This document shows, in pieces, positions 1,835-26,800 of a stretch of DNA of 31,138 bases. The notes under the pieces were generated by a model. It saw only the letters and a program-made list of their open reading frames with translations. It did not search any database and had not been told where the DNA came from. Position numbers and translations under genes: made by a program. Origin of the DNA: an uncultured Candidatus Saccharibacteria bacterium (GTDB lineage Bacteria; Patescibacteriota; Minisyncoccia; Phycocordibacterales; UBA9973); NCBI GenBank assembly GCA_964586755.1, contig CAZPHJ010000003.1, forward strand, positions 1 through 31,138, read 5' to 3'. Position 1 is the first letter of the stretch. Each line of letters begins with the position of its first letter.

Positions 1835-1845
1835 AAGTGAACATT

Positions 1846-4080: not shown

Positions 4081-4165
4081 AAGATAAAAATGAAAAATTA
4101 GTAACCCGAATTCCATGTTAGATTTTTAGTTGCCGTTTTGCTTTTTTCATTTTAATTTTTACATT
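4067..4165. repeat. Inverted heptamer arrays (AAAT type) filling the ftsK-downstream intergenic space
   Basis: Left arm aaatgca-aaattaa-aagataa-aaatgaa-aaattag (4067-4101) overlaps the ftsK stop. Right arm tgccgtt-ttgcttt-tttcatt-ttaattt-ttacatt (4131-4165) abuts the next ATG. Confidence 0.8.
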
Positions 4166-4522
4166 ATGGAACGCTTCAATCTTAAAAAAACACTTAGAGT
4201 AGGAGGTGCTATCACTAGTATCGTGCTCATTCTCGGATACGGAGTATGGATCGGACGAGATATATTGTTTGGCATTTCATTCTCTGTCGATGGAATACGC
4301 GACGGCATGTCTACAAACGAAGGCGTCCTCACCTATTCTGGCAACGCTCGACACGCAAACTTACTTGTCGTCAACGGCCATACCGTGTCTTTGGCTGAAG
4401 ACGGCACCTGGGAAGACACGCTTGCTCTATTGCCGGGAGAGAATACAATACAGATTGAGGTGACCGACCGATTCAAACGAACATCTGAGAAGATATATCG
4501 AATTTATTACAAAGTGCAGTAG
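4166..4522 (+). CDS. Membrane-anchored protein with a beta-sandwich (Ig-like) extracellular domain
   Basis: MERFNLKK, then one TM helix (VGGAITSIVLILGYGVWIG), then an Ig-like pattern (L.VNG..V....GTWE..L.L.PGEN.IQIEVTDRFKR). True start is ATG 4166; the upstream extension in the ORF track is repeat sequence. Confidence 0.85.
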   Translation: MERFNLKKTLRVGGAITSIVLILGYGVWIGRDILFGISFSVDGIRDGMSTNEGVLTYSGNARHANLLVVNGHTVSLAEDGTWEDTLALLPGENTIQIEVTDRFKRTSEKIYRIYYKVQ

Positions 4523-4562: not shown

Positions 4563-4597
4563 CTAGTGCCTAGCGCCTAAAGCCTAACGCCTAAAAA
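4563..4597 (+). repeat. CTAnnGC heptamer tandem array directly before recA
   Basis: ctagtgc-ctagcgc-ctaaagc-ctaacgc-ctaaaaa, then a-ATG. Confidence 0.85.
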
Positions 4598-4598
4598 A

Positions 4599-5672
4599 AT
4601 GGCTGGATTTGCAAAAAAAGCGCCGAAAGAAAAGAAAGAAACTGGGATGGATATCATCGACACCATCAAATCAATCCAAACGAAGTTTGGAGAAGGTGCG
4701 ATTATGAAACTCGGAGACACTCCAAAAGTAGACGTTGATGTCATTCCATCAGGCTCTATGGGTCTTGATATGGCACTCGGCGTTGGAGGAATCCCCCGCG
4801 GACGCATCATCGAAATCTTTGGACCGGAATCATCTGGTAAAACTACGCTCGCCCTGCATATCGTAGCAGAAGCACAAAAAAAGGGCGGTATCTGCGCATT
4901 TATCGACGCCGAACACGCAATGGATCCAGTCTATGCCAAAAATCTTGGGGTGAATACCAACGAACTTCTCATCTCTCAACCGGACACCGGCGAGCAGGGT
5001 CTCGAAATTTGTGAATCACTTGTCCGATCAGGCAAAATTGCCGTCGTTGTAGTCGACTCTGTAGCAGCACTCACACCAAAAGATGAAATTGAGGGCGACA
5101 TGGGAGCGCAACACGTAGGCAAACAAGCTCGACTCATGTCACAAGCACTCCGCAAGCTCACGGCAATCGTTTCAAAATCAAACACCGTTGTTATATTCAT
5201 CAACCAGATCCGCATGCAAATCGGTGTCATGTTCGGCAATCCAGAAACAACTCCAGGTGGAAAGGCGCTCAAATTTTACACATCGATTCGTCTCGACATC
5301 CGTCGCATCGCTCAGATCAAAAAAGGAGAAGAGGTCGTCGGAGGTCGTACGCGTGTAAAAGTGGTCAAAAACAAGGTCGCTGCCCCATTCAAACAGACTG
5401 AGTTCGATATCATCTACGGTGAAGGTATCTCGTACGAAGGAGAACTTATGGCTCTCGGCGAAAAGATTGGCATCGTTGCCAAATCTTCCGGCGGGTCGTA
5501 CACCTATACTCCACAAAACAAAGATGGCAGCAAAGCTGAAGAAATCAAAATGGGTCGCGGGTATGACGCAACCCGTACCTTCCTGAAGCAAAACGCAAAA
5601 CTCGAAAAGGAAATGGAAAAGACTATCCGTTCACGCTTCAGCGAGATCCAAGTCGCAAGTGCAGGAGAGTAG
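4599..5672 (+). CDS. recA: RecA recombinase
   Basis: [52 protein letters not shown]. No intein or intron is visible. Confidence 0.99.
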
Positions 5673-6283: not shown

Positions 6284-6321
6284 CTAGAGCCTAATTATCT
6301 AGCGCCTAATTATCTATTCCT
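6284..6321 (+). repeat. CTA-type 7/8-mer array directly before efp
   Basis: ctagagc-ctaattat-ctagcgc-ctaattat-ctattc-ct, then ATG. Confidence 0.8.
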
Positions 6322-8092: not shown

Positions 8093-8101
8093 GACATAGT
8101 A

Positions 8102-8125
8102 AAAAGCACCCTTGCGGGTGCTTTT
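8102..8125 (-). terminator. Intrinsic terminator of the ABC exporter gene
   Basis: aaaagcaccc-ttgc-gggtgctttt, 5 nt after the stop. Confidence 0.85.
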
Positions 8126-8130
8126 AGATA

Positions 8131-9885
8131 TTAGATATGAAACTGTTTTTTCCAGAATGATGCATACGCACCATCTTTTTCGAGCAAGTCGCTGTGACTT
8201 CCCTGCTCTTCTACTGTTCCGTTTTTGAGAACAATAATTTCATCAAGATTAGAAACTGTGGTAAGCCGGTGAGCAATTACAATAAGTGTTTTGTCTTTCA
8301 TTGCCTTCAACACTCGTTCTATTGCTTCTTCTGTTTCAGAATCAAGCGCAGATGTTGGTTCATCAAGGATTAGGATTGGTGCATCTTTAAGAAAAGCTGC
8401 CGCAATCGCCAAACGTTGGCGCTCACCACCAGAGAGCTTAACTCCTCGTTCACCCACCTTTGTATCATATCCATGTTCTAGTCGATTAATAATAAAATCA
8501 TGACATGAGGCTTTTTTTGCAGCAGAGACAATTTCTTCTTCTCTTGCATTTGGTTTACCGAGAGCGATAATCTCACGAACAGTTCGAAATGGGAACGAAG
8601 GATCTTGTTGTACATAACTAATTAAGCTACGAATGTAATCTCGCGAAAGCTCACTTATTGAAGCTCCGCCGATAGTTATTTTTCCTTGACCATTTTCCAA
8701 TTCAAACTGGCGAAGCAGAAGTCTCGTAATTGTAGTCTTACCACTTCCGGTATGACCAACAAAACCATATCTTTTTCCAGAATGGAGATTAAAGCTAACG
8801 TTTGTGAGTACTGGCAATTCTCTTTTTGGATACCTGAACGATACATCTTGAAACAAAATCCCATGATCAACAATACTCACTGTTGAATCAAAGTGCTGTG
8901 TTCTTCTAACCTCTGGTTCCTTTTCAGAAATAATTTCTGCCATTTCGTGTGCGTCTGCAAATGATGATCGAAGCTTAAATACACTTCTCCCAAACATCCA
9001 CATATATCCCGAAACCGATGCTACAAAGAACTGAACTAGGACAACTGTTCCGACCGACACGACACCTGCCAAAGCTTGAGTAATAATGTAATACATCAAA
9101 ACAACTTCAAGCAAAACACTGAGTCCAGACTGTATAGCCCATTGACGATTACCATGCCACCATGAACGAAAACGAAATGAATGTTCACTCGCCGTCGTTT
9201 CAGCAAAATGAGCGTATTCCAAGTCTTCCCGAACATATGAATGTATCATGTGAGCACTTCCGATAATGTCACTGAGGTGTCCAGTCGTGTGCGTCTCAGC
9301 ATCTGCTGAAGCAAGATCGTGCGGTGTCCGAATGTCTGATAATTTCCAAGTAGTCAGGCCAAAGAGAACTGCCCATCCGAGCAAAATAAATCCAACAACC
9401 GGAACTGTAGAAAGTGCTACGAAAAAAACACCTGTAATCGTAATAACCACGCGAATCATTGTGAACGCAATCTCGTCAAACACAGACTCTGAGGCAATCG
9501 CAAATCTTCTGGATTTTGCACCAATAGAACCAGCAAAATTGTCTAAGAAAAAACTCGTGTCAAAACGTACAAGACGTTTGAGTGCGTAATCTCTCAAGTA
9601 CTTTATGATATGTGACTCAGTTTTTGTTAAACACCAGTCACCGAGGCGATCAATAAACCAACAAACGACCCCAATAATTGGTATAAGGGCAAATAACACC
9701 AACGGATTGTTTTTTTCCGTGAAGCTATCAATGATCCTTCGCCATATTGTCACCTTATACACGTCTCTGAGAAATGTGGTTATACCATATGACACGAGCG
9801 TGCCAACAACATACCAGCGATACTGGTAAAATGCGTGTTTCCAATGACGCCACACCGGAGCGAACAACTGTTTTTTCTTTTCCAT
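8131..9885 (-). CDS. ABC exporter, fused permease and ATPase (MsbA/multidrug half-transporter type)
   Basis: N-terminal multi-TM domain, Walker A GHTGSGKT, signature LSGGERQR, Walker B LILDEPTSALD, H-loop IAHRL. Confidence 0.96.
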   Translation of the reverse strand: MEKKKQLFAPVWRHWKHAFYQYRWYVVGTLVSYGITTFLRDVYKVTIWRRIIDSFTEKNNPLVLFALIPIIGVVCWFIDRLGDWCLTKTESHIIKYLRDYALKRLVRFDTSFFLDNFAGSIGAKSRRFAIASESVFDEIAFTMIRVVITITGVFFVALSTVPVVGFILLGWAVLFGLTTWKLSDIRTPHDLASADAETHTTGHLSDIIGSAHMIHSYVREDLEYAHFAETTASEHSFRFRSWWHGNRQWAIQSGLSVLLEVVLMYYIITQALAGVVSVGTVVLVQFFVASVSGYMWMFGRSVFKLRSSFADAHEMAEIISEKEPEVRRTQHFDSTVSIVDHGILFQDVSFRYPKRELPVLTNVSFNLHSGKRYGFVGHTGSGKTTITRLLLRQFELENGQGKITIGGASISELSRDYIRSLISYVQQDPSFPFRTVREIIALGKPNAREEEIVSAAKKASCHDFIINRLEHGYDTKVGERGVKLSGGERQRLAIAAAFLKDAPILILDEPTSALDSETEEAIERVLKAMKDKTLIVIAHRLTTVSNLDEIIVLKNGTVEEQGSHSDLLEKDGAYASFWKKQFHI

Positions 9886-9930
9886 TTTTTGAGTTTTTTT
9901 GGAGTGAGAAATTATTTTTATTGAGTTTTT

Positions 9931-10016
9931 AAAGAAAAAAGCATCCTATCATTCACAGATGACAGGATGTTTGAAACATTCACGTTGTTAGATTAAACAC
10001 TTACAACATCCTGCCA
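9931..10016 (-). promoter_or_regulatory. Transcription attenuator (mutually exclusive antiterminator and terminator)
   Basis: In the mRNA, A (10016-10005) UGGCAGGAUGUU pairs 12/12 with B (9971-9960) AACAUCCUGUCA, including one G-U. B also pairs with C (9951-9942) UGAUAGGAUG, which is followed by C-UUUUUU-C-UUU. Confidence 0.82.
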
Positions 10017-10118
10017 TAATTGGCATGTATTCCCCATGAGAGTAGAGCGCACAGCAAAAGAGCTGCCGATCCACGGCTTCTGGGAATAGGTATTAAGATG
10101 TTTGTATGTGTTTTTCAT
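9993..10118 (-). CDS. 41-aa leader peptide of the ABC exporter attenuator
   Basis: Manual translation MKNTYKHLNTYSQKPWIGSSFAVRSTLMGNTCQLWQDVVSV*. It starts 9 nt below a -10 element and its last codons overlap antiterminator strand A. Below the ORF-track cutoff. Confidence 0.68.
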   Translation of the reverse strand: MKNTYKHLNTYSQKPWIGSSFAVRSTLMGNTCQLWQDVVSV

Positions 10119-10127
10119 ACTAAATTC

Positions 10128-10155
10128 ACATTAGCATGTAAGAAATATTTGTCAA
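10128..10155 (-). promoter_or_regulatory. Sigma70 promoter of the leader/ABC unit
   Basis: TTGACA-N16 (ending TGc)-TAATGT on the minus strand. Confidence 0.7.
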
Positions 10156-10164
10156 TATAAACAA

Positions 10165-10191
10165 AAAAAACCACCCGACGGGTGGTTTTTT
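10165..10191 (-). terminator. Terminator of rpsF-ssb-rpsR
   Basis: aaaaaaccaccc-gac-gggtggtttttt, just after the rpsR stop. Confidence 0.88.
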
Positions 10192-10197
10192 CAGGAA

Positions 10198-10398
10198 TTA
10201 TTTCTGAACGTAAGGAATAAGTCCCATGAATCGAGCACGCTTCACAGCGAGAGCTACTTTGCGTTGATTTGCAGCTGAGAGGCCTGTGCGGCGTCCGCTC
10301 TGGATCTTGGCTGTAGGACCGAGGAATTTTTTCAAAACCTCAACATCCTTGTAGTCGATGTGTTTTATGTTATTTGATGAGAAAAAATCTTGTTTCAT
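10198..10398 (-). CDS. rpsR: 30S ribosomal protein S18 (no Zn-binding Cys)
   Basis: IDYKDVEVLKKFL, RRTG, QRKVALAVKRARFMGLIPY; third gene of rpsF-ssb-rpsR. Confidence 0.97.
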   Translation of the reverse strand: MKQDFFSSNNIKHIDYKDVEVLKKFLGPTAKIQSGRRTGLSAANQRKVALAVKRARFMGLIPYVQK

Positions 10399-10406
10399 TG
10401 TTTCAA

Positions 10407-10486
10407 CTAGTCATTAGACTCTAGATAATTAGGCGTTAGAATTTTTTGAATTCCTAAAGCCTAGAGCCTAATTTTCTAAATTACTG
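10407..10486. repeat. Inverted CTA-type arrays between ssb and rpsR
   Basis: The arm before rpsR reads ctaacgc-ctaattat-ctagagt-ctaatga-ctag on the minus strand. The opposite arm ctaaagc-ctagagc-ctaatttt-ctaaatta is on plus at 10454-10483. Shares an exact 14-mer, gcctaattatctag, with the efp upstream array. Confidence 0.8.
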
Positions 10487-12865: not shown

Positions 12866-14308
12866 TTATTCCTTACGCATAAAGAGCGGAGTTTCTGGCT
12901 TTTTATTGTCTTTAATAAGCGCTTTTAATTTTGCGTTTGTTTCCGGCATGATTGGATTGAGCATTCTCGCAATAGTATACAAATCAAGAACCATTTCCGA
13001 AATGAGCTCCTTTCCTTTTACTTCATCCACTTTTACAACTTTGAAAGGTTCTGTTCTTTGGATTTTTTGGTCGAGTACTTGGATTTTTTCCCAAATGAGG
13101 GCTGTGGCCTTTTGAATATCAAATAATTCAAGCGTATCAAAAAACTCTTGGGGAATAGAACTCTCCGGCAACGGAGGGCACTCGGGGAGATATTTCTCGG
13201 ATAGTGTAAGTATTCGCGAAGCAAGATTTCCCAGCCCATTTGCAAGATGTGCATTGTATGATGCCTTAAATCTCTCCATCGTAAATGGACTATCTTCAAA
13301 AGAAGAGATTTCCTTTGCCAAGAAAAATCGCATTGCATCTGTCCCATACTCTGCAACCACATCCTTTGGGTCGACTCCATTACCGAGAGTCTTCGACATA
13401 CGTACACCGCCATCAGCAGTAATAAAGCCGTTGACTACGATTTGATGAGAATTGGGTACATTTGCGGCCATGAGCATTGCCTGCCACATTGCAGACTGAA
13501 ATCGAGTATTGTCTTTTCCACAATACTGGGTAGGAGCTCCATTTTTCCAATACGTTTCAAAATTACCGCCTTCGTTTGGCCAATCAAGGGTAGAAATATA
13601 ATTGGTTAAAGCATCAAACCAAACATACATCACATGCGCTTCATCCCCTGGCACTGGAATCCCCCACGACATCTTGGTCTTCAAACGAGATATGGAAAAG
13701 TCTTCAAGTCCACGCGCAACAAATGCTTTAATTTCGTTGTAGCGAAAATCTGGTACAACAAAATTTGGATTGGCCTCATAAAAAGCAGTGAGCTTCTCCG
13801 TAAATGCAGAATACTTAAAAAAATAATTTTCCTCCTCAATAATTTCTAGTGCTCGTCCTGGATGAACTGGGCATTCCCCGCTTACCAAATCAGAATCTGT
13901 TTTTACTTCCTCACAACCAACGCAATACTTTGCTTGGTAATTTTTTTTGTAAATATACCCATTCTGGTCACATCGTTTCCAAAATTCTTGAGCCGAAGCC
14001 TCGTGTCTTGCGTCAGTCGTTCGAGCGTAATGAAGAATACTTTCATCCAAGCCAAAAATTTTTACGGATTCAGTAAATCGGGCAAAGCTCTCATCCACAA
14101 ACTCTTGTGGAGTCTTTCCTAAAGACTGCGCTTTTTCATATATTTTCATTCCATGCTCGTCCGTTCCAGTATTAAAAAAAACGTCAAAACCGTTCAGTTT
14201 TTTATATCGAGCAATAATGTCTGCGCGTACAAACTCAAGCGCGTGACCCATGTGAAGGTCCGCATTTACATATGGAAGTGTGGTTGTAATATAAAATGGC
14301 TTTGACAT
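12866..14308 (-). CDS. metG: Methionyl-tRNA synthetase (short form, no C-terminal tRNA-binding domain)
   Basis: YITTTLPYVNADLHMGH, TGTDEHG, YVWFDAL, RMSKT (KMSKS equivalent), knuckle CxxC...CxxH. Confidence 0.98.
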   Translation of the reverse strand: MSKPFYITTTLPYVNADLHMGHALEFVRADIIARYKKLNGFDVFFNTGTDEHGMKIYEKAQSLGKTPQEFVDESFARFTESVKIFGLDESILHYARTTDARHEASAQEFWKRCDQNGYIYKKNYQAKYCVGCEEVKTDSDLVSGECPVHPGRALEIIEEENYFFKYSAFTEKLTAFYEANPNFVVPDFRYNEIKAFVARGLEDFSISRLKTKMSWGIPVPGDEAHVMYVWFDALTNYISTLDWPNEGGNFETYWKNGAPTQYCGKDNTRFQSAMWQAMLMAANVPNSHQIVVNGFITADGGVRMSKTLGNGVDPKDVVAEYGTDAMRFFLAKEISSFEDSPFTMERFKASYNAHLANGLGNLASRILTLSEKYLPECPPLPESSIPQEFFDTLELFDIQKATALIWEKIQVLDQKIQRTEPFKVVKVDEVKGKELISEMVLDLYTIARMLNPIMPETNAKLKALIKDNKKPETPLFMRKE

Positions 14309-14317
14309 AAAATAGTT

Positions 14318-14362
14318 AAAAGTTCATAAAGTTTGTAAAGTTCATAAAGTCATTCAAGTCTT
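14318..14362. repeat. 9-mer tandem arm downstream of the four-helix-bundle gene
   Basis: aaaagttca-taaagtttg-taaagttca-taaagtcat-tcaagtctt. Confidence 0.9.
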
Positions 14363-14707
14363 GAGTGTCTTAATAAACCCAGACAGTATTTTTGAAATTT
14401 CGCTTGCATGATCAGCAAGTACCAGATACTGTTGCTTGTTAATATACTCAAGATCTAGGGCAAGCGCCAGCATAGAACGAACTTCGCCCGATGAACCTTT
14501 GGCTATAAAAAGAAAATTTCTAAACTCCTTGTTCGTCTGCCTCTCGTACCCTTCTGCAATATTATTCATTATTGAAACAACTGCCCTCTCGATTTGGTTT
14601 TTGAATGAAAAATCTTTACATCCAACAAACGTTGAATAAATTATAAGCGAAAAAACTTTGGCTTTTTGCCAAGCAACAATATCTTCAAATTTTTGTATGG
14701 TCGTCAT
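14354..14707 (-). CDS. Four-helix-bundle protein (23S rRNA intervening-sequence protein / S23 family, Avd-related fold)
   Basis: FEDIVAWQKA...IY...FKNQIERAVVSIMNNIAEGYER...F..FL.IAKGSSGEVRSML..A.DL.YI...I..ILSGFIK is the family consensus pattern. Confidence 0.95.
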   Translation of the reverse strand: MTTIQKFEDIVAWQKAKVFSLIIYSTFVGCKDFSFKNQIERAVVSIMNNIAEGYERQTNKEFRNFLFIAKGSSGEVRSMLALALDLEYINKQQYLVLADHASEISKILSGFIKTLKT

Positions 14708-14713
14708 GGGTTT

Positions 14714-14758
14714 ACTTTATAAACTTGATGAACTTTACAAACTTTATGAACTAATACT
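14714..14758. repeat. 9-mer tandem arm upstream of the four-helix-bundle gene (inverted relative to 14318-14362)
   Basis: actttataa-acttgatga-actttacaa-actttatga-actaatact; overlaps the AI-2E gene stop. Confidence 0.9.
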
Positions 14759-15757
14759 AGCTTTTTTCTTTTTATCGAGATCATCAAAAAATTCCATGAC
14801 ACATACAGCCACGGGAATAGAAAGAATAACCCCCCAGAACCCAGCGAGCTCAATACCTACGAGCAAGGATAGGATTACCAAGAGAGATGAGATTCCAACT
14901 ACTTTTTTTACAATGAGTGGCTGAATCAGATTTGCTTCAAATTGCTGAATAACCACATAGAGACCAGCAACTTCGAGTGCTGTGGTTGTTCCACCACTTG
15001 AATACCCAGAGGCGATTGCCGGTATTGCCGCCAAAATAATACCGAATGGTATAAGTTCCATAATCGCAGCCGCTACAGCAAGTAGAAGTGCATATTGTAC
15101 ATTAAACAAAAGAAGACCTAGATAAATAAATACCCCCACCAAAAATCCAAGCAGGAGCTGCCCTTGAAACCAGAGGCCGATCTTGTGTTCAGTTCTTTTC
15201 CATAGTCCTACTACATACTCCTCACTACGATCAGGGGTAATAATGCGAAGAAAATTTTCAACTCCGTTTTTGTTGATTGAAAGATAAAAAGAAATAACCG
15301 CAAGCAAGACTACGTTGACAAGTCCGCCGAATATAAAGCTTGCTGCAGCAATAGCTTGAGGTCCTGTGTTTGTTGCCAAAGATTCGAACTTTCCAATAAT
15401 ATCCACAAACGGAACACCTTCCGAAGCATTCGTACCCGTAGTTGGTAAATAGGTGTGAATAAAATTGAAAAACTGAGCCATCTGTCCGAGGAATACTGGA
15501 ACAAAAAAATACAAAAACAATCCAAACAAAGCTATAACACAAAAATAAATAATAACTACAGAAAAACTCCTTCCGAGCTTACGCGCCACCAGTTTCTTTA
15601 CGCCGAATTCAACGAATGACGCAATTACAATCGATGTTAGAAAAACGTAGACCAAATCACGAAGATAGTACAGCCCAAAAATAAGCGCCAGGAGTGCAAT
15701 GGTGCTCCAAATAGTCTTTTGGCTTATCGTAATAACTTTCTCTCCTTGGGGGTTCAT
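14744..15757 (-). CDS. AI-2E family (PerM/UPF0118) transporter
   Basis: Multi-TM protein with WFQGQLLL, ELIPFG..LAAIPA, QQFEANLIQP, GFWGVILSIPVA. Confidence 0.93.
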   Translation of the reverse strand: MNPQGEKVITISQKTIWSTIALLALIFGLYYLRDLVYVFLTSIVIASFVEFGVKKLVARKLGRSFSVVIIYFCVIALFGLFLYFFVPVFLGQMAQFFNFIHTYLPTTGTNASEGVPFVDIIGKFESLATNTGPQAIAAASFIFGGLVNVVLLAVISFYLSINKNGVENFLRIITPDRSEEYVVGLWKRTEHKIGLWFQGQLLLGFLVGVFIYLGLLLFNVQYALLLAVAAAIMELIPFGIILAAIPAIASGYSSGGTTTALEVAGLYVVIQQFEANLIQPLIVKKVVGISSLLVILSLLVGIELAGFWGVILSIPVAVCVMEFFDDLDKKKKASISS

Positions 15758-15781
15758 ATGCCCATCATAGCACCTTTACGG

Positions 15782-17056
15782 CTAAGCTTTAAATGTGAGG
15801 ATTTTGGCGAATTCTGCCTTGCCTTCAAAGGGTCCAATGAGAGCAAGATTGAGGTGTTTATCGACAAATATCTCGCGCGCCACTTTCTGGATTTCTTGTG
15901 CTGTAACCTTTCGAATCTTCGCTTCAATTTCTTCTGGAGATTGGATTTTTTTGCGCATGACTTCTTGCCCACCGAAATAACTCGCCCATGCATCAGAACT
16001 TTCAAGCTCGAGCTTCATGTTGCCTATCAAATACTCTTTGGCTTTTTCAAGTTCAGCTTTTTCTACAAGCTCAGTTTTAAACCGAGCGCACTCTTTCAAA
16101 ATTTCTCCAATTACTTCCTGCACACGCGTATTTGAAACACCAGCAGAAATTTGAAATACTCCATGATCGGAATAAGTGTCGTTTCCAGCACGCACGTAGT
16201 ATGCCACACCGAGTTCTTCGCGCAGTCTTATAAAAAGTCGCGAACTCATTCCCCCGCCCAAGATTGTACCAAGCATCATAAGTGCCGGATTACGTTTGTC
16301 ATAGGTATCAAAACTACGCACTCCGAGCACGAGATGTGTTTGGTCAGATTGCTTATGTGAAATAAGCACGGCCGGTTTTGATTGTGTATCTTTCGTTTTT
16401 CCTTTTGTTGATTTTGCAGTCGATTTAAGTGAGCCAAACACTCGTTCTATTTCCTTTTCAACTTCCTTTTCAGAAACTTTGCCGGCCACAATCACTGTCG
16501 TTGCCCTTGGCACGTAATGCGCATTTTTATATTCCACAAAATCTTTGCGTGTCATTGCGCGAACATTCTCGCGAGTACCAGCAATATTCCAACCCGCCGG
16601 CTGATTGCCGTAGAGAAGTTCCATGAATACATCCTGTACATGACGCTGAGGCATGTCTTCATACATATTGATTTCTTCCACAATCACGCCTTTTTCCTTT
16701 TCGATTTCAGCTTCTGGAAACGTCGAATTCAGATAGACATCAGAAACAATGTCGAAGATTTGTTTAAAGTGTTTCGCATCGCTTTTCGCAAAATAGCCAG
16801 TATATTCCTGTCCGGTAAAAGCATTCGACTGACTTCCGAGCCCATCAAGCTCAGCCGAAATAGCATGCGCCGAGGGGCGTTTTTCCGTGCCTTTAAAGCA
16901 CATATGCTCCAGGAAATGAGATATACCATTCTTAGCCTTTGTCTCGTATTTTGAGCCCGTTTCGACAAGTACAAGGACTGTGACAGTCGGATTGTCTTTC
17001 ATTGGTACGGTAATCACTCGAAGTCCATTTTTAAGTTTGGTTTTGATGTATTGCAT
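15782..17056 (-). CDS. M16 family zinc peptidase (insulinase/pitrilysin-like)
   Basis: GISHFLEHMCFKGT (HXXEH), NAFT, EKEKGVIVEEI, GGGMSSRLF..LREELGVAY. Confidence 0.96.
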   Translation of the reverse strand: MQYIKTKLKNGLRVITVPMKDNPTVTVLVLVETGSKYETKAKNGISHFLEHMCFKGTEKRPSAHAISAELDGLGSQSNAFTGQEYTGYFAKSDAKHFKQIFDIVSDVYLNSTFPEAEIEKEKGVIVEEINMYEDMPQRHVQDVFMELLYGNQPAGWNIAGTRENVRAMTRKDFVEYKNAHYVPRATTVIVAGKVSEKEVEKEIERVFGSLKSTAKSTKGKTKDTQSKPAVLISHKQSDQTHLVLGVRSFDTYDKRNPALMMLGTILGGGMSSRLFIRLREELGVAYYVRAGNDTYSDHGVFQISAGVSNTRVQEVIGEILKECARFKTELVEKAELEKAKEYLIGNMKLELESSDAWASYFGGQEVMRKKIQSPEEIEAKIRKVTAQEIQKVAREIFVDKHLNLALIGPFEGKAEFAKILTFKA

Positions 17057-17191
17057 ATGGTTTATATTATCTCCTCCGGAGCGAGGATAAAATTAATAGA
17101 AATATCAACGGTTTTATCTATTTTATGGTATTAAAGATAAGTCAAAACCATATATCCAAAATATAAAATCTAAATACTTATCGTTAGTTTT

Positions 17192-17842
17192 TTATCTAAA
17201 AAAATTAAAGATTTTAGTAAAAAACCTACTAAAAGAATTCTTTTTAGGTATTGGTGTACGTATTTCTGAATCACCGTTATTAACTTCTGGAGAATAAACT
17301 GAAAGTTCAGAAGATTGTTTCTCATACTGATATGGTTTTATTTCTCTTAGTGTTTTTGTTCTATCATCAGTTGCATTTTTAATTTCTGATTTTTCTTTTA
17401 ATTCTCTATCTTTTATTATTTGGTCAGTTACACCCTTCATATACTGCACTAAATCCTGACTATTTTTATTTATTTCAAGAGTTTTTTGTTGAGCCCTTAA
17501 AATTTCTTCTTTTCTAATCAATTCGAGCTCTCGATCTAATAAAGCTTTTTCTTTTTGCCACAACTCCTCTCTTTTTTTAGAATCTTTCTCAAGTTCTATT
17601 TCTTTTAACTTTAACTGGTATTCTTTTTCCAGAGCATCTACTGATTGATAATAACTATCAAATGATTGGTTATAAAAATTATTTTGTTTATCTAAAATAT
17701 CTTGATACTGCTGTCTTTGACTTTCATTACCTATGTAATTATATATAGAACTTTTTAGTTCTATATCTGTGGGAACATATGCACTAACAAAACTTGGCAG
17801 AGACACCAAACCCAGTAGTGTTAAAATTAACTTATTTTTCAT
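17192..17842 (-). CDS. Secreted coiled-coil hypothetical protein, strongly AT-rich
   Basis: Signal peptide MKNKLILTLLGLVSLPSFVSA, K/E/Q-rich heptad region, amphipathic tail SFSRFFTKIFNFFR. Confidence 0.75.
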   Translation of the reverse strand: MKNKLILTLLGLVSLPSFVSAYVPTDIELKSSIYNYIGNESQRQQYQDILDKQNNFYNQSFDSYYQSVDALEKEYQLKLKEIELEKDSKKREELWQKEKALLDRELELIRKEEILRAQQKTLEINKNSQDLVQYMKGVTDQIIKDRELKEKSEIKNATDDRTKTLREIKPYQYEKQSSELSVYSPEVNNGDSEIRTPIPKKNSFSRFFTKIFNFFR

Positions 17843-17857
17843 AATAGTGCATTTTAA

Positions 17858-19207
17858 TTACAACTGCTCTTTGATTTTTGAAACCAAATCAGAAATTTTT
17901 ACGCGCTCTTGCACTCCTGTATCACGGTCGCGGATGGTGACTGTATCGAGATGATCTGGATTTTCGCCGAGTGTGTCAAAGTCGATCACGATACACCATG
18001 GTGTACCGATTTCATCTTGGCGACGGTAACGCTTTCCAATGTTTCCGTTGTCATCAAATGCGACGCGTCCAAATTCCTTTTTGAGCATCATGTATACCTC
18101 TCGTGCTTTTTCTACGAGTTCAGGCTTATTTTTGAGAAGTGGAGACACGGCACAAAGTACTGGTGCGATTGAAGGCTTGAGTTTGAGGTATGCGCGAGTG
18201 TCGTCCCCCATCTGATCTTCCGTGTATGCTTCCATAAGCGTAAAGAGTACGGCTCGGTCCACACCACCAGAACATTCGATATCCCATGGAATGCATCGCT
18301 CTTTGGTCTCCTCATCATAATACGAAAGGTCTACACCTGAGTATTCAGAGTGGCGTCGCAAATCCCAATCTCCACGATGGTGGATTCCCCACGCCTCTTT
18401 CCATCCAACACCTGGCATATTGTATTCAATATCCCATGCATCTTTTGCATAGTGAGCACGCTCATCTGCTTCATGCGCACGCAAGCGCAAACTTTCCTTT
18501 TTAAATCCGAGTCCGTAGTACCAATCAAGTGCGGCATTTTTCCAAAACTCAAATGCTTCCGCGCCAGTTTTTTCATCTGGCTTAATGTAATACTGAATTT
18601 CCATCTGCTCGAATTCGCGCTGACGAAATAGAAAATCGCGGGGCGTGATTTCGTTGCGAAAAGCTTTTCCAATCTGACCAACACCAAATGGGAGCTTCGG
18701 ATGCATCGAGTCGAGAATATTTTTAAAATTCACATGTACACCTTGGGTGATTTCTCCACGGAGATATACCTGTTGTGCAGTATCCTCTGAAGCGCCAAGT
18801 TTTGTTTCTACAAGAAGATTGAAAACGCGAGGCGTTGACCATTCCACTTTTTCCTTCGGGTGTGTCGCTTCATGATCAGAAATCGCTTCTGGCTGATCGG
18901 CACGCACACGGCCGTTACAGATTTTACATTCCACAAGCGGATCAGTAAAAAGCTCGGTATGACCTGAAGCTTCCCAGACTTTTGCCGGCATCAAGATTCC
19001 CGCACTGATTGGATAGATATCTTCCCTGTTTTTGATGAATGTCTCCCAAAAGTATTGTTTGATATTGTGGCGAAGTTCCACGCCAAGTGGACCGTAATCA
19101 AAGATTCCCGAAAGTCCTCCGTAGATTTCTGATCCCTGGAATATAAAGCCACGTCGCTTACAAAGCGACTGAATCTTTTCCATTACATTTTCCTGTTTAT
19201 TTTCCAT
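17858..19207 (-). CDS. glyQS: Glycyl-tRNA synthetase, alpha2 type
   Basis: DYGPLG, YLRGEIT, GKAFRNEITP, FRQREFEQME, anticodon domain GNIGKRYRRQDEIGTP. Confidence 0.97.
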   Translation of the reverse strand: MENKQENVMEKIQSLCKRRGFIFQGSEIYGGLSGIFDYGPLGVELRHNIKQYFWETFIKNREDIYPISAGILMPAKVWEASGHTELFTDPLVECKICNGRVRADQPEAISDHEATHPKEKVEWSTPRVFNLLVETKLGASEDTAQQVYLRGEITQGVHVNFKNILDSMHPKLPFGVGQIGKAFRNEITPRDFLFRQREFEQMEIQYYIKPDEKTGAEAFEFWKNAALDWYYGLGFKKESLRLRAHEADERAHYAKDAWDIEYNMPGVGWKEAWGIHHRGDWDLRRHSEYSGVDLSYYDEETKERCIPWDIECSGGVDRAVLFTLMEAYTEDQMGDDTRAYLKLKPSIAPVLCAVSPLLKNKPELVEKAREVYMMLKKEFGRVAFDDNGNIGKRYRRQDEIGTPWCIVIDFDTLGENPDHLDTVTIRDRDTGVQERVKISDLVSKIKEQL

Positions 19208-19309
19208 ACCCTTCTACACTAGCATTTTTTTAAATTAGACCAAAATACCCCCCTCACTCAGTAGAATGACTCTTGGGGTAAAGTGCAGAATAGAAGGAGG
19301 ATCGCATTG

Positions 19310-19345
19310 ACTTTACAAACTTTATAAAATTCATAATTTTCAACT
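19310..19345. repeat. Solo degenerate 9-mer arm at the stop of the 640-aa gene
   Basis: actttacaa-actttataa-aattcataa-ttttcaact. Confidence 0.65.
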
Positions 19346-21267
19346 TATTGAGTCACTGTTTGTCCATTTGGTGGGAACCCTGGCTCGTTACGAAGTTGGG
19401 TTGATGTTGCTCCTCGGCTCGTAGTGAGCATTACACCGGTAAATGTATCTTTTGCCGATACGGTCGTGTCTAAAACAAGTTTTGGAACACTACCCACTTG
19501 AGTTTCTGACGGATTGAGGCGTACCTGGAACGACACCTTACGAGGAGATCCGCTCGTACCAGCACCAGCAGGCACGGTTCCGATTTTCCATCGAATCGTA
19601 CTTGTTGTTGCGTCGTATTCTACAGACTCTCCAGATGGAGAAATCGTTCCAACCCAATCTACATATGTCGGCAAAAGAGCAGTAGCAAAACCGTCAGTGA
19701 GGGCATTTGCCGAATTGGTTACAGTCCAAGTAACAGTATACGTCGTAGGTTGATTGGCTTTCGGTGGAATTGGTCCAGTGTTTGAAAATGGTCCAGTATT
19801 ATATGAGGCATCCGGAGAAAAACCAAGATCAGAATTTATTACTGCAGTCTTTTCTTCGAAATCAGCAACCTCACTTACAGCTCCCCCTTGGTCTGGTTGT
19901 TTGCCTTTTATACTTACCGATACTTTTACAGAAGGTTTAGAAATTGTTCCCCCAGTAGACCACAGCGGCAAAACTTTGAATGAAAATTGTAAAATCCCCT
20001 GGTCTGATGGTTCAATCGAAGCAAGTTCGGCAACAGATGTCTTGTTCCAAGTTATCGTTTTGTCCAAAGAATTATAAAAACCTTTTTGCGCATCGACTGA
20101 TTTTCCATCGAGCGCATTCCCTGACAAATGAACAATCACTGAAGCGTCCGTTACGCGAGTTGGTAGATTGTTTGTGTAGTTTACAGTGACCGAAACATTT
20201 CCAGCACTACCGACTGGGGTTGGATCAGTCGTCGAGCTATTAATAGAAAGACGCGCAGCAAGAAATGGCTTAACGAGTGATACTGTTTGAAGCAGTGAGT
20301 TGTACGTCACACCAATTTTGGAATTATCAGTCGTACTTACTGCACCTGTGTACACATGAAAAGCTCTATCTTCCCCGTCCTGTCCATACACAGTACCAGT
20401 AATCACTACGTCGCGCTCCGCTCCAGGTGCAAAATCACCAAGGTTCCATACATTATTCGAAGCAGTTGCTTCTGGGACTGATTTTTCAAAATTAAATCCA
20501 GTTGGATATTCGACATGGAGCAGCATTCCAGAAAGCGTATTCTTACTATTTGAAACCGTCTTGACAGTAAAGGTCAATTTTTGATTTGGGGTTATACTTT
20601 TTGGACCCTCAACAGAAAGTGATACTGGTGCGGAATTGATAGTCACCACAAACGAAGATTTTTTTACAAAAATTGCGTTTGAGCCGCGGAGGCGATACTG
20701 CAATGTGAAGTCAACACTCTTTGTGCTCCCTTGTTCGCCGAACAACGTTACAAAAAGACTCTTGGTGGTATTTCCACCAGCAGGAATCGTGCCTAGTGAA
20801 TTCAATTCACGAACGTGTCCGACACTGTTGCTGGCAGTTCCACCATTATCATACTCGACAAAAAGATCGGCGAGTTCAAGCGCACTCGCGTTCTTGTTTG
20901 AAACTTCAACCTGCAAAGGAAGTTCCTCACCGCCAGCGGTAAATGAATTACCAAGAACATTAATTTCAATATTGGCATTCGAAACAGTATTTCCTCCTGT
21001 AAAAAACATTACTGTAGCAAAAAGTGCAGCAAGCACTGCAAATCCAAGTGAAAAATAAAAAAACTTCTTAAAAAAAGAGTGGTGAATTTGTGTTTTTTCT
21101 GGTTTTGATTTTGACATATCTGCTTCCCAGTCTTTCTTAACCGGTGTCGGATTCAAATGAAGACTGTCGATGCGTCGCATCACGCGTCCCGCAAGATCAC
21201 GCCGATACAGGCGTGCATTTACGTCATCTAAGTTATGCGGCTCGTTTGGATTTCCCTGGTCTGACAT
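19345..21267 (-). CDS. Single-pass membrane protein with several Ig/DUF11-like beta-sandwich domains
   Basis: Cytoplasmic N-terminus, one TM (FFYFSLGFAVLAALFATVMFF), repeated V.N....L / W.LG...PG / YT..W.V.N / ..W.IG motifs. Confidence 0.85.
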   Translation of the reverse strand: MSDQGNPNEPHNLDDVNARLYRRDLAGRVMRRIDSLHLNPTPVKKDWEADMSKSKPEKTQIHHSFFKKFFYFSLGFAVLAALFATVMFFTGGNTVSNANIEINVLGNSFTAGGEELPLQVEVSNKNASALELADLFVEYDNGGTASNSVGHVRELNSLGTIPAGGNTTKSLFVTLFGEQGSTKSVDFTLQYRLRGSNAIFVKKSSFVVTINSAPVSLSVEGPKSITPNQKLTFTVKTVSNSKNTLSGMLLHVEYPTGFNFEKSVPEATASNNVWNLGDFAPGAERDVVITGTVYGQDGEDRAFHVYTGAVSTTDNSKIGVTYNSLLQTVSLVKPFLAARLSINSSTTDPTPVGSAGNVSVTVNYTNNLPTRVTDASVIVHLSGNALDGKSVDAQKGFYNSLDKTITWNKTSVAELASIEPSDQGILQFSFKVLPLWSTGGTISKPSVKVSVSIKGKQPDQGGAVSEVADFEEKTAVINSDLGFSPDASYNTGPFSNTGPIPPKANQPTTYTVTWTVTNSANALTDGFATALLPTYVDWVGTISPSGESVEYDATTSTIRWKIGTVPAGAGTSGSPRKVSFQVRLNPSETQVGSVPKLVLDTTVSAKDTFTGVMLTTSRGATSTQLRNEPGFPPNGQTVTQ

Positions 21268-21297
21268 GCGCTCATTTTATCACATAAAATGAGAGTA

Positions 21298-21400
21298 AAA
21301 AGTTTATAAAGTTCATAAAGTTTTTAAAGTCATACAAAATCAATACATTTGGGTTCACTTGATGAACTTTACAAACTTTATGAACTTGACGAACTAATTA
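21298..21400. repeat. Empty copy of the four-helix-bundle flanking element (both 9-mer arms, 23-nt core)
   Basis: Left arm aaaagttta-taaagttca-taaagtttt-taaagtcat (21298-21333). Right arm acttgatga-actttacaa-actttatga-acttgacga-actaatta (21357-21400). The 30-mer acttgatgaactttacaaactttatgaact is identical to 14723-14752. Confidence 0.9.
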
Positions 21401-21985
21401 CAGATGACTCTCTGAAAGCGCCTGATTGATGTCGCGAATGAGACGATGTTGATATGCAATATCAGAAAATTCTTCTGGTATTTGCGCTTCTCCACCCAAA
21501 GTTACCGCTACGCCCGGAATCGCTCGAGAAAGATATCCGAGAGAAATAAGGATTCGCGCCACACAGAGAAGCTCAAGGGCTCGGAAATCCTCTGGCGATT
21601 TTCCGCCTGTTTCCAGCAAGGCATAGGTACGGACGAGAATTTGAAATATTTCTTCACTCGCCTCTTCTCCTGTCACCAAACGAATGATGAGTGATGAGAC
21701 GTGTGCAAGAATTCGTTCACTTTCCTTGATGTGCAATATGTGAGTGTATGAATGTAATGGCGAAGCAGTAGTCACGCGCCAAATTTCTTTACCTCGAACC
21801 AAATCCACTTGCGCACGCGAAAAATCCTGCAGTGTGAATCGCAACTTCGAAGAAATTTTACGAATACCTTGCGCATGTGCGTACACAAGTCCCAATTCGC
21901 GCGTATACAAAAAGAGGACCTTTGAATCCTCCCCTTTTGCCCGCGATCCGAGCACAAATGCTTCTGTGTGATGAATGTGGTGCAT
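21398..21985 (-). CDS. recO: DNA repair protein RecO
   Basis: TEAFVLG...GEDSKVL.LYTRELGLV.A.AQGIRKISSKLRF.LQ.F (N-terminal OB fold). Confidence 0.88.
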   Translation of the reverse strand: MHHIHHTEAFVLGSRAKGEDSKVLFLYTRELGLVYAHAQGIRKISSKLRFTLQDFSRAQVDLVRGKEIWRVTTASPLHSYTHILHIKESERILAHVSSLIIRLVTGEEASEEIFQILVRTYALLETGGKSPEDFRALELLCVARILISLGYLSRAIPGVAVTLGGEAQIPEEFSDIAYQHRLIRDINQALSESHL

Positions 21986-22022
21986 AGGACTAGGTGTAAG
22001 GTTTTAGGTTTTAGGTTTTAGC
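21986..22022 (-). repeat. CTA-type heptamer array spanning the hydrolase stop and abutting the recO start
   Basis: Minus strand: ctaaaac-ctaaaac-ctaaaac-cttacac-ctagtc-ct-ATG. It encodes the hydrolase C-terminus LKPKT*. Confidence 0.8.
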
Positions 22023-22570
22023 CAATTCATTAATGCAGTAAATGCCTCCGGAAGCTCGTACCAACCTGATGAGCCATTCAAATGCCCACCGTTTGGAATC
22101 GGAATAAGTTCGCACGTAAGTTCATGCGCAAATTTTTCTGCGTCAGAAAATGGAACGCCTGGATCATTATCACCGTGAATAATTGCAAAGTTTTTGCATG
22201 CGTTTTTTATGCGCACAAAATCATAATCTGGTTCAAAAAAACCTTGCAATATTTCGCGCTTACCTTTGTATGGACCAGAAACAAGTAGGGCGCCTCCAAT
22301 TTTTGACCCTTCTGGTAATACCTGCAAATACTGCAAAATTCCATTTACTCCGAGTGAGTGACCGACCAGAAAAATACTTTCATTCGGCTCAGGAATCTCA
22401 GATGCGATTTTCTTTATCCATTCTTCTTTTTTTGGAGTAGCTGGCGTAGGCATCGCCAAAGAACACGCAAATATATCCTCTCTTCCAAGTTTACCCATAA
22501 GCCATGGTCGCCATCCACCGTTAGGAACACCTTCAAATCCATGAATTAAAAATACTTTTGGTTCATTCAT
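22004..22570 (-). CDS. RBBP9/YdeN-family alpha/beta serine hydrolase
   Basis: VFLIHGF, nucleophile elbow GHSLG, HGDNDP, GGH triad positions. Confidence 0.92.
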   Translation of the reverse strand: MNEPKVFLIHGFEGVPNGGWRPWLMGKLGREDIFACSLAMPTPATPKKEEWIKKIASEIPEPNESIFLVGHSLGVNGILQYLQVLPEGSKIGGALLVSGPYKGKREILQGFFEPDYDFVRIKNACKNFAIIHGDNDPGVPFSDAEKFAHELTCELIPIPNGGHLNGSSGWYELPEAFTALMNWLKPKT

Positions 22571-23875: not shown

Positions 23876-26800
23876 TTACACTTTTTCAATTACAATCTCA
23901 CTTCCGGCGAATGTAACACTCTCTGCAAGTACGGTTTTTTTCAAATCACCTTCGAATCCAGCGACTGTATCTTTGGCATTTTCTGGAAGTGTGAGGGTTA
24001 TGACATCGCTTGGAGTAAGTCCTTGTTTCTTTCGAGTGTCTTGAATTGCGCGCACAAGCTCACGATACTCCCCTTCACGCTTGAGCTCGGGAGTGATTTC
24101 CGTATCAAGTTCCACCTCACTTTCAATTGCAGCATCTTGAACTATTTCTTTAACATTCAATTCATCTTTCAAAATTTCATAGTATTCGACTTTCAACTTT
24201 TCACTTTTCACTTTCAACTTGTTTAGGGGTTGTCGCACAGCAAACTTTGCTTTCTGTCGAGCTTCCATTCCAAGCGTCACAGTTTCGCGAACTTTTTGCA
24301 TTTCTTCCAAGACTTTCTGACTTTCGACTTTTGACTCATATTCTGGCCAATTTTCAAAATACACGCTCTTCTCTCCTCCGAGTCGAAGCCAAATATCCTC
24401 TGCCGCAAATGGTGCAAATGGCGCCATGAGCTTCGCTGTAGTTTTCAATACAAAATACAATGTCCGCTTTGCTTCCGCATCGCCATCTTTCATACGATCA
24501 CGACTGCGTCGCACATACCAAGTCGAAAGATCATCAATGAACTCTCGAAGTGCGCGTACTGGTTCGAGCAGTTTGTAATTATCGAGATTCTCCGTCATCG
24601 TCATTGTAAGCTGGTTGAGACGAGCAACAATCCATTGATCGAGGATGTTTTCTGACTGAGCATATTCCCCACTTTCGAGCGCTGTGTCGCGATAGAGCTC
24701 ATAAAAAGCGAGTACGTTATAGAGCAAGTTGAATACTTTGTTGTGGAGTTCCGCAACAGTCTTCTCGTCGAAGTTTTTTGATTCACCTGGCTGGTTCACC
24801 GAGTACATCCACAAGCGAAGCGTATCTACTCCGTATTTTTCAATCATCTCCCACGGGTCAACAATGTTTCCAAGTGACTTACTCATCTTCTTTCCTTCTG
24901 CATCCAGAATGTGTCCGAGACAAACTACATTCTTATATGCGAGTCCGCGACCCATAAGCATTCCAATAGCGTGGAGTGTATAGAACCATCCGCGAGTTTG
25001 GTCGATTGCTTCACAAATAAAGTCTGCCGGATATGCAATCTCTTTTGTCGCAAATGGATAATGATCTTGTGCAAACGGCATCGCACCTGAGTCGAACCAG
25101 ACGTCCATCACTTCATTCACACGCTTCATCGGCTCGCCATTTTCAGAAACGAGTTCTACATGATCGATATATGGTCGATGTAGATCAAGTTCCCAATTGT
25201 GATTGTGCGGGAATGGTACATACGGAACCTCACGCACTTCGGCATTTTCAAAATAGTGAAAATCTTTTTTGTTCTCAATCATCTTGAGTGATTCCTCTGC
25301 GCCAAATCCTTGAATACCAGCCATAAGAAGCCAAGATGGTCCCCCATGACTCACGATAAGTACTTTGCGGTTCTGGAATTTGATCTCAACATCATGTATA
25401 AAATCCATCATCCAACCTTTTACCGTGTTGTATGATTCTCCTCCTTCTGGACCATTGTAAAAATTTTCTACCGTTTTTGGAAAATCTTCATGATATTTAC
25501 TCCATGGGCCTTTGTTATATATTCCAATATCCATCTCGCGAAGACGTTCGTCAAAAAGCATCTCCACTTCCCCGCCGAGTCCTTCGCGGATAATGTCCGC
25601 AGTCTCTCGAGTGCGAACGAATGGCGATGCGATTATGAGATCAATCCCCAATTCCTTGAGTTTTGAAATCTGGTCGGCGACTTGTTTACGACCAAGCTCG
25701 GTGAGGTGCACCGGCTCGTTTGGATCAGCACTCGCCATACCTTTTAGATTATGATCTGCTTCTCCGTGGCGAATAACATGGTATATATTACCAGATTTTT
25801 TGGCTTTCTTTTTCATTTCATCCAGCGAGCCAATCACTTCGATTTTTCCTGATTCTGTCATCCAGATTGGAAGTGGTGTTCCCCAGTATCGTTCACGAGA
25901 AATCGCCCAATCCTTAATATCTTTTAGCCAATCGCCAAAACGACCATCACGGATATATGATGGCTCCCAATTTATTTTTTTGTTTTCCTCGATGAGCCCC
26001 TCTTTAATCTTTGGATCACTCATGCGGATATACCAAGAATCTCGCGCGTAATAGATGAGCGGAGTCTTACAGCGCCAACAATGTGGGTATGAGTGTTCGT
26101 ACTTTTCTTTTTTAAACAAGAGTCCGCGATGTGCAAGGTCCTTGATGATGTCAATTGCAACATCCTCGTCTTTTACAAATCGTCCTTCGAGAAAATCTGT
26201 GCCAGCGATGAATGTTCCATCGAGCGCCACCATATGATGCTTCGGCAGTCCGAGCTTGGTTCCGAGTTCGAAGTCATCTGCACCGTACATTACGGCTGTA
26301 TGAACAACACCAGTTCCGTCAGTCGTAGTAACAAAATCTGCTGGATATACCTTGAATGCTTTTTCGAGTGAAGCTTGTCCTTCAATTTGAGTTTTGAGAT
26401 AAGGATAGAGCGGTTCGTATTCAAACCCGATAAGGTCCAAGCCTTTCATTTTTTCTACAATTTCAAAACCTTCTGGAAGCACACTAGCGCGCGCTTCGGC
26501 GAGAATCAAAAATTCTTCACCAACTTTTACTTTTACATATTCAATATCATTCCCCACTGCAAGCGCGACGTTGCCTGGCAATGTCCATGGAGTTGTCGTC
26601 CACGCAAGTATGTATGTATTTTCCGGACTTTCAACTTTCGACTTTATAACTTTGAACTTGGCCGTGACCGACAGGTCACGGTCGTCCTGATATCCCTGTG
26701 CAAGTTCGTGCGACGAAAGCGCAGTTCCACAGCGCGGACACCATGACACAATACGATAGTCTTTGTAGACGAGTCCTTGATCGTTTACTTTTTGCAACAC

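Follow-up and report, generated by a model that had tools for sequence, protein, structure and literature searches.

A PF05635 gene between inverted repeat arms, and gene-less copies of the same arms, at gene boundaries of a Candidatus Saccharibacteria genome

What kind of genetic unit is a small gene enclosed by inverted arrays of short tandem repeats, when the same arrays recur nearby without the gene? The question is raised by a 31,138-nt stretch of DNA from an uncultured Candidatus Saccharibacteria bacterium (contig CAZPHJ010000003.1 of assembly GCA_964586755.1, positions 1 to 31,138; hereafter the window), in which a 117-aa protein of the family PF05635 (23S rRNA intervening sequence (IVS) protein, or S23p) is encoded between an AI-2E transporter gene and metG. 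To our knowledge, PF05635 has been without a known function since the 1990s, and its sole characterised relative is Avd, the RNA-binding partner of the reverse transcriptases (RTs) of diversity-generating retroelements (DGRs). An initial annotation, made from the letters of the window, had taken the two arrangements for filled and empty alleles of an undescribed mobile or repeat-generating system, an interpretation that our results partly support. We read the cassette as an IVS-type unit that has a gene-bearing form and gene-less derivatives, selfish or commensal, and following the logic of insertion sequences (ISs) and miniature inverted-repeat transposable elements (MITEs), or of RAYT genes and their REPIN repeats, with no known transposase. 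We give this reading a probability of roughly 0.6.

The window is contig C3 of the genome under study (G000; 692 kb, 81 contigs, about 88% complete), which was compared with 40 related genomes (G001 onward), the closest being G013. Going by the database names of its near protein relatives, the genome falls among Paceibacterota/Nomurabacteria-like bacteria of the candidate phyla radiation. The whole cassette measures 440 bp (14317-14756), and the PF05635 gene is its sole ORF (open reading frame), so that the gene-bearing copy holds no transposase. Both arms are period-9 tandem arrays, and 39 nt of each (14321-14359 and 14714-14752) are 87% complementary, with 354 nt between them. The gene has the orientation of both its neighbours. 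The AI-2E transporter gene lies upstream of the cassette and has its TAA stop codon (14744-14746) inside the outermost unit of the right arm, while the left arm, downstream of the PF05635 gene on the transcribed minus strand, stops 8 nt short of the metG start codon at 14308. In the window the two-unit pattern AAAGTN4AAAGT is present 10 times, where shuffling leads one to expect 0.24, and none of 100 shuffles reached 10.

Folded as RNA, the filled copy has a z-score of -6.0, and the minimum-free-energy and centroid structures both shut the ORF inside the arm stem, with the start-codon region buried. We saw no promoter-like or intrinsic-terminator signal in the arms, and promoter-like sites in the region were not above shuffles; transcription of the cassette therefore appears to be by read-through. 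An Rfam scan of the window gave no match, and the cassette sits not in helix 25 or 45 of a 23S rRNA but between two protein-coding genes. The initial annotation had also stated that the window has no transposase, recombinase or RT. None was found among the genes around the cassette that were scanned with Pfam (12866-22570), but the statement fails for the genome as a whole, which has two RT genes and two genes that look IS200/RAYT-like by their sequences.

At the boundary between recO and a DUF11 gene, the same arms recur in the same order around a spacer of 22-26 nt, its length set by the choice of arm end. Here 36 nt of each arm (21295-21330 and 21366-21401) are 83% complementary, and the z-score of the RNA fold is -5.7. 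The right arms of the filled and gene-less copies share a 30-mer with 100% identity (14723-14752 and 21357-21386), the sequence taaagtcat closes both left arms, and GGGTT stands just before both right arms. The recurrence of the arms around a short spacer, the shared 30-mer, the common end of the left arms and the solo arm at 19310 had been noted in the initial annotation and were confirmed.

The pattern is repeated elsewhere in the genome. There are three true PF05635 genes, besides one weak Avd-like match adjoining an RT gene, and all three lie tightly within an inverted repeat (loops of 365, 372 and 371 nt in a generic scan). Their scores for bracketing by inverted repeats are 27, 15 and 20, against a median of 7 and a 95th percentile of 10 for 625 control genes of the same genome. 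The arm units differ between the paralogues: AAAGTTCAT nonamers around the gene in the window, GAAAGTC heptamers around that on contig C26 and CTAGAGCCTAATTATCTA-type units (CTA type) around that on contig C1. The surmise that each paralogue has its own repeat type thus holds for 3 of 3 genes. The AAAGT, AAAT and CTA types that had been listed for the window are all present in it, and AAAGT and CTA were tied to a paralogue. Away from the genes, the AAAGT family comprises 13 complete gene-less hairpins and about 16 solo arms, at some 30 gene boundaries, and the CTA-type arm of the C1 gene is found at about 20 intergenic loci. Short-unit arrays number 109 in the intergenic 11.5% of the genome and 70 in coding sequence, an approximately 12-fold higher intergenic density, and many of these array families have no gene.

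Across the related genomes the distribution of PF05635 is patchy, with 0 to 10 copies within one genus. Bracketing was assessed for 53 genes from 16 of them, and 38 of the 53 scored at least 14, the cut-off used for relatives, with arms made of many different 7-9-nt units; the proposed enrichment of flanking arrays around four-helix-bundle genes extends, then, to these lineages. Protein identity was correlated with 6-mer similarity of the flanks (Mantel r of 0.36, reached in 0 of 2000 permutations), although r may be inflated by the flank words, which include 20 nt inside each ORF end. The clades of a maximum-likelihood tree correspond to arm types, with genera and families intermixed, and each genome is represented in several clades, so that arm type tracks protein clade as the initial annotation had suggested. 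Genes for relatives that share 65-77% identity with the window protein are situated at pheS|pheT, at secY|adk and ahead of a prgI/traC-like operon, and each has AAAGT-type arms; one protein clade with AAAGT-type arms is found at four unrelated gene boundaries in different lineages. The cassette gene is on the strand of its neighbours in 43 of the 44 cassettes whose neighbours share a strand. Whether by descent or by movement, arms and gene are passed on together, and each protein clade has its own repeat unit.

The gene-less copies resemble what a deletion would leave behind. In G000 their loops start with a motif like the 5' inner end of the cassette (ACCCA..ATAC) and finish like its 3' inner end (TTGAATG), and ATACAAAA, found in gene-less loops, matches codons 4-6 of the ORF; loops that keep the inner ends of the cassette in this way are the expected remnant of internal gene deletion. 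A frameshifted, 3'-truncated copy of the gene between AAAGT arms in G004 looks like an intermediate. The converse may be considered, namely that arms are separate from the element, boundary hairpins arising by slippage or as RNA processing sites and a selfish ORF homing into their loops. Gene-less hairpins do far outnumber filled ones, many array families of G000 are without a gene, and the motifs that flank the gene could equally be a split loop. We nevertheless consider homing improbable. In G019 and G033, AAAGT arrays occur solely as arms beside a PF05635 gene, and there are thus no landing pads; the metG site in relatives is empty or has a solo arm, never a gene-less hairpin; the arms accompany the protein clade at four unrelated sites in different lineages; and the match of ATACAAAA to codons 4-6 points to gene deletion and not to an unoccupied target.

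Gene-less copies retain the inner ends of the cassette, and relatives with 85-97% identity differ in which of these copies they have; the gene-bearing locus is polymorphic as well. At the AI-2E|metG junction, G000 has the filled cassette, G008 and G004 have a solo arm directly ahead of the metG start, and 10 other genomes of the genus, among them G013 with a 96% identical MetG, have nothing. Two wastewater metagenome runs, X4 and X5, yielded contigs of a strain about 97% identical that has no cassette, 29 nt linking 14302 to 14760. In X4 the depths, which are approximate since alleles were read from assembler contigs, were 29 for the filled piece (identical to the window), 20 for the absent joint and 50-56 for the shared flanks, as expected for two coexisting alleles in one sample. 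Filled, solo-arm and absent states at metG, a polymorphism that the initial annotation had proposed to look for, were in this way all seen in sister genomes and reads. The arrays also break metagenome assemblies at element borders. As a side observation, this strain has 121 nt in place of 17057-17894, a stretch that holds a 216-aa ORF (17192-17842, no Pfam match) and has no match in G013 either.

The hairpin at rplD|rplW, shared by G000 and G004, is absent from G013 and six other genomes, and that at rplW|rplB is common to G000 and G013. At a G000 copy without counterpart in G013, the upstream ORF is shortened by its last codons and terminates as AGT TCA TAA within the first arm unit. Most arm types contain TAA or TAG when read inward, and an incoming copy would therefore terminate any upstream frame that it truncated. 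The expectation that empty copies behave like MITEs is borne out to this extent: their form suggests internal deletion, and close relatives differ by gains and losses of them.

At the level of genomes, strict AAAGT arrays number 28 in G000, 41 in G004 and 20 in G013, with single matches in five other PF05635-positive genomes. None was found in any searched genome that lacks a PF05635 match above the Pfam cut-off, and controls gave 0-1. CTA-type matches number 23 in G000, 19 in G004, 14 in G013 and 4 in G015; other genomes have at most 2, which is noise level. At housekeeping loci chosen independently of the gene, arrays reach 1.46 per kb of non-coding DNA in PF05635-positive genomes and 0.37 in negative ones, a difference driven by G004 and G013.

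Several results weigh against our reading of the cassette as a selfish or commensal unit. The co-occurrence just described is partly phylogenetic, because the PF05635-positive, repeat-rich genomes are relatives, and G008 has seven PF05635 genes and few arrays. Some families lack a cognate gene (AAAGT and CTA in G013, GTATAC in G004 and G002), so that the repeats can persist in the absence of the gene. At metG and at rplD|rplW, where one sequence replaces another and the junctions have diverged, neither a target-site duplication nor a clean insertion edge was found. AI-2E|metG was the sole context in which the identical protein was found, and recent transposition of this exact gene was rejected on that ground; the relative protein P0101 was always found at secY|adk. 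Gene-bearing copies accordingly move rarely. For these reasons, a mechanism of mobility, as the initial annotation had implied it, was not borne out. The two arms of a hairpin are no more complementary to each other than to arms from other copies (own mean 16.8 versus 20.1). Hairpin-specific compensatory pairing was therefore rejected: what is kept is the unit sequence, not a perfect stem, for which there is no sign of selection. Finally, the S23p protein of Coxiella is reportedly not made in vivo (PMC4990558).

With these points in mind, we propose the following sequence of events for an IVS-type unit. The promoter-less PF05635 gene lies inside terminal inverted repeats whose arms can pair as a stem of about 40 bp, and the cassette would be transcribed by read-through. 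By analogy with 23S rRNA IVSs, the stem would be a substrate of RNase III, whose cleavage would free the mRNA of the gene and part the flanking cistrons. The Avd-like protein, probably pentameric, would bind its cognate unit array, and new copies may come from recombination between arms or from replacement at gene boundaries rather than from classical transposition. G000 has two RNase III genes. One of them (L106:3801-4187) is directly upstream of the heptamer-armed cassette on C26, which may be coincidence; the gene after that cassette is smc-like to judge from its first residues.

An AlphaFold model of the 117-aa protein is a confident four-helix bundle (predicted local distance difference test score, pLDDT, 95.7). 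Foldseek placed 2GSC and 2RLD first, with template-modelling (TM) scores of 0.83-0.89; both were found also by sequence, and both crystal structures have five chains. Next came Avd (4DWL, TM 0.77) and the DGR ribonucleoprotein entries 8UB7 and 8UB8. The link to 23S rRNA IVS proteins and to Avd drawn in the initial annotation was sound on both counts, the former by Pfam (E 5.6e-32) and the latter by structure. PF05635 is a very large family, of which a single search returned 3407 proteins at E <= 1e-20. As far as can be judged from the alignment, the 117-aa protein has no recognisable catalytic motif. Avd is a pentameric, positively charged, S23-protein-like barrel with a defined Avd-binding RNA element (bioRxiv 10.1101/2023.10.23.563531).

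Given the fold, one might suppose that an Avd-like protein and a DGR-type RT together copy tandem units from an RNA template into gene boundaries. Tandem 7-9-nt units might resemble repeated copying of a short template, and the array-rich genomes G000, G004 and G013 each have 2-3 RT genes (in G000, on contigs C2 and C26). Yet we regard synthesis by a retroelement as very improbable. Five genomes with bracketed PF05635 genes have no RT match, among them G039, which is 100% complete, and dependence on an RT was rejected for this reason. G002 is rich in GTATAC-type arrays and has no RT match, the RT genes have their own, far more divergent Avd-like partners, and no template/variable repeat pair or adenine-specific variation was seen, though no formal search for them was made. 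The RT gene on C26 (L106:963-2358) encodes 361 aa that match RVT_1, and its neighbour on the other strand is a divergent ORF with weak similarity to PF05635; the two are probably a DGR-type RT and its Avd. An AAAGT hairpin is 1.3 kb away and the C26 cassette 2.1 kb away.

A different view of the arrays is suggested by their positions. The initial annotation had held that, on the transcribed strand, the AAAGT arm follows a stop codon and the ACTTT arm precedes a start. This rule fits 13 of the solo arms of G000, AAAGT reading just past stops and ACTTT reading just ahead of starts, and is trivial for complete hairpins because both of their strands read alike. Of the eight array sites in the window, six have an array in G013 too, and at five of these the unit family is a different one. 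In that genome the site of the solo arm at 19310 has an array of a AATTAGGAAT-type unit, that of the CTA-type hairpin at 10413 a AGAAAGTAG-type hairpin, and that of the heptamer array at 4563 a CCTAGAA-type array; the site upstream of recO has arrays of different units in relatives. Several of the G013 units (AGAAAGTAG, AATTAGGAAT and AAGCTTT types) match the arms of PF05635 genes resident in G013. Two further sites with such a change of unit family lie in the S10 ribosomal protein operon, which in G000 (contig C29, L107:959-3401) has hairpins at successive junctions, including both sides of an rplW-like gene; in G013 two of the hairpin sites hold other unit families and a third holds none. 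Boundary hot spots, recombination of alleles between strains, or homogenisation to resident families are possible causes of such swaps.

These facts could be explained by a host regulon, in which the unit arrays are cis sites in mRNA or DNA, the PF05635 paralogues are ring-shaped trans binders resembling TRAP, which binds tandem triplets, and each paralogue controls the genes that bear its unit, as well as its own gene through the flanking arrays; no mobile DNA would be involved. Besides the positional rule of the solo arms and the exchange of units for those of resident genes, the regulon would account for the conservation of unit identity and not of exact arm complementarity, and it agrees with the five chains of the crystallised homologues, with the 3-5 units per arm and with the binding of a defined RNA element by Avd. 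Even so, we think it unlikely. Gene number varies from 0 to 10 within one genus, with close relatives that have neither gene nor array; families outlast their cognate gene; a decaying gene copy exists in G004; gains overwrite the 3' ends of upstream genes; and arrays between consecutive ribosomal protein genes have no obvious regulatory logic.

The selfish or commensal cassette that we favour has its nearest counterpart in the ORF-bearing 23S rRNA IVSs of Coxiella burnetii and Leptospira. The helix-45 IVS of C. burnetii, 428-444 nt in length, has an S23p ORF and a 28-bp terminal stem, which RNase III cleaves; suspicions that it is mobile, with help from the ORF, are of long standing (PMC4990558). 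Shared features are the S23p/PF05635 protein, terminal inverted repeats that close a stem, the lack of an own promoter, a sporadic distribution suggestive of horizontal movement and the size, 440 nt here against 428-444 nt in Coxiella (PMC4990558). Unlike these IVSs, the cassette lies between protein-coding genes and not in rRNA, its arms are arrays of clade-specific 7-9-nt units, and it has dozens of dispersed gene-less copies; cleavage by RNase III is known from Coxiella and only predicted here. The word "undescribed" in the initial annotation is therefore too strong for the gene-in-hairpin architecture. In a full-text literature search we found no paper linking PF05635 to dispersed gene-less repeat families or to the pairing of paralogues with units, and one mention of an association with CRISPR was a figure legend.

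Among mobile elements, the REPIN-RAYT system (Bertels and Rainey, 2011, PMC3116915; PMC3337134) is similar in its low-copy gene flanked by an inverted cognate repeat, in the pairing of each gene lineage with its own repeat family, in the intergenic dispersal of gene-less hairpin doublets and in the persistence of repeats for a time without the gene. It differs in its gene, an HUH Y1 (IS200-like) transposase instead of a small four-helix bundle with no known catalytic motif, and in its repeats, which are single REP palindromes and not tandem arrays; the gene described here is moreover patchy, at 0-10 per genome. IS elements and MITEs are likewise bounded by terminal inverted repeats, include short forms that have lost the gene and kept the ends, and are present in some strains and absent from others. 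Unlike them, the cassette has no transposase and no target-site duplication, and its gains overwrite the 3' end of the upstream gene. With the Avd of DGRs it has the four-helix-bundle fold in common (TM 0.77 to 4DWL); sequence identity is about 10%, and the cassette has neither an adjacent RT nor template/variable repeats.

Coordinates of the cassette, of its gene-less counterpart and of the other arrays in the window are collected in Table 1.

Table 1. Arrays, arms and the PF05635 gene in the window (positions count from its first letter).
Feature	Position	Strand	Basis or context
GCCTAAN heptamer array	4563..4595		immediately 5' of start codon at 4599
CTA-type solo array, two 15-nt units	6284..6316		repeat searches
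Gene-less CTA-type hairpin	10413..10478		gene-bearing copy on contig C1
Left arm, filled cassette	14317..14359	+	4-5 tandem AAAGTT(C/T)(A/G)T units
PF05635 gene (23S rRNA IVS protein / S23p, Avd-like), 117 aa	14354..14707	-	Pfam E 5.6e-32
Right arm, filled cassette, inverted array	14714..14756	+	repeat searches
Solo arm, AAAGT family	19310..19339	+	5 nt past DUF11 gene stop, transcribed strand
Left arm, gene-less hairpin, recO / DUF11 gene boundary	21295..21334	+	repeat searches
Loop, gene-less hairpin	21335..21356	+	family census
Right arm, gene-less hairpin, finishing at recO stop codon	21357..21401	+	repeat searches
TAGGTTT heptamer array, 4.4 copies	21991..22021		immediately upstream of recO

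Some further features of the window and the genome may be recorded. An AAATGAA-type inverted pair at 4072-4168 has 26-nt arms, 81% complementary, just past the ORF at 1837-4080, and a similar AATGAAA array occurs on contig C44. Another 117-aa ORF, at 3763-4116, was considered as a gene and set aside as probably spurious, because it has no Pfam match and overlaps the longer ORF at 1837-4080. AAAGT-like runs in ileS (24188-24222, 24311-24339 and 26626-26661) were considered as recent insertions and rejected, since G013 and G004, and to some extent G001, conserve the peptide segments that they encode; the runs look like ordinary coding sequence for Lys, Val, Ser and Glu. The stretch 8093-10199, which includes a 584-aa ORF (8131-9885), has no BLAST match in the syntenic region of G013.

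Within pheT on contig C28 (L105:2336-2361 and 3334-3352), GAAAGTN heptamer arrays are in frame with PheT. The first encodes a KVESGKSK insertion common only to G004, and the site of the second is hypervariable, with a similar array-like peptide in G004. A 110-aa ORF on contig C20 (8394-8751) lies in a 32-nt, 94% inverted repeat without a unit array and constitutes a second small gene-in-hairpin cassette of G000. By sequence reading this ORF is GIY-YIG-like, and two genes with their own GC-rich palindromes (C5:4696-5364 and C58:1548-2291) are IS200/RAYT-like (YHIYNRG... and NHFH motifs), so that a classical pair of the REP/RAYT type may coexist with the array families in this genome.

A more specific proposal can be put forward tentatively, and we think it doubtful: that a non-catalytic PF05635 ring binds its own 7-9-nt array and thereby drives the spread, replacement and homogenisation of boundary hairpins. 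If true, a partnership driven by binding would explain why units differ at orthologous sites and match resident genes, and we would be dealing with a new class of selfish or domesticated element and with a function for the whole S23p/IVS family. Irrespective of that proposal, the clade-specific, strain-polymorphic arrays make the function of PF05635 testable, as that of a ring-shaped oligomer binding tandem units in a sequence-specific manner. Such arrays can be expected to be mistaken for CRISPR-like repeats. Genomes of 0.7 Mb from the candidate phyla radiation (CPR) carry dynamic repeat families, even within a ribosomal protein operon, and the rRNA IVS is extended from a curiosity of rRNA genes to a general cassette that lodges in operons.

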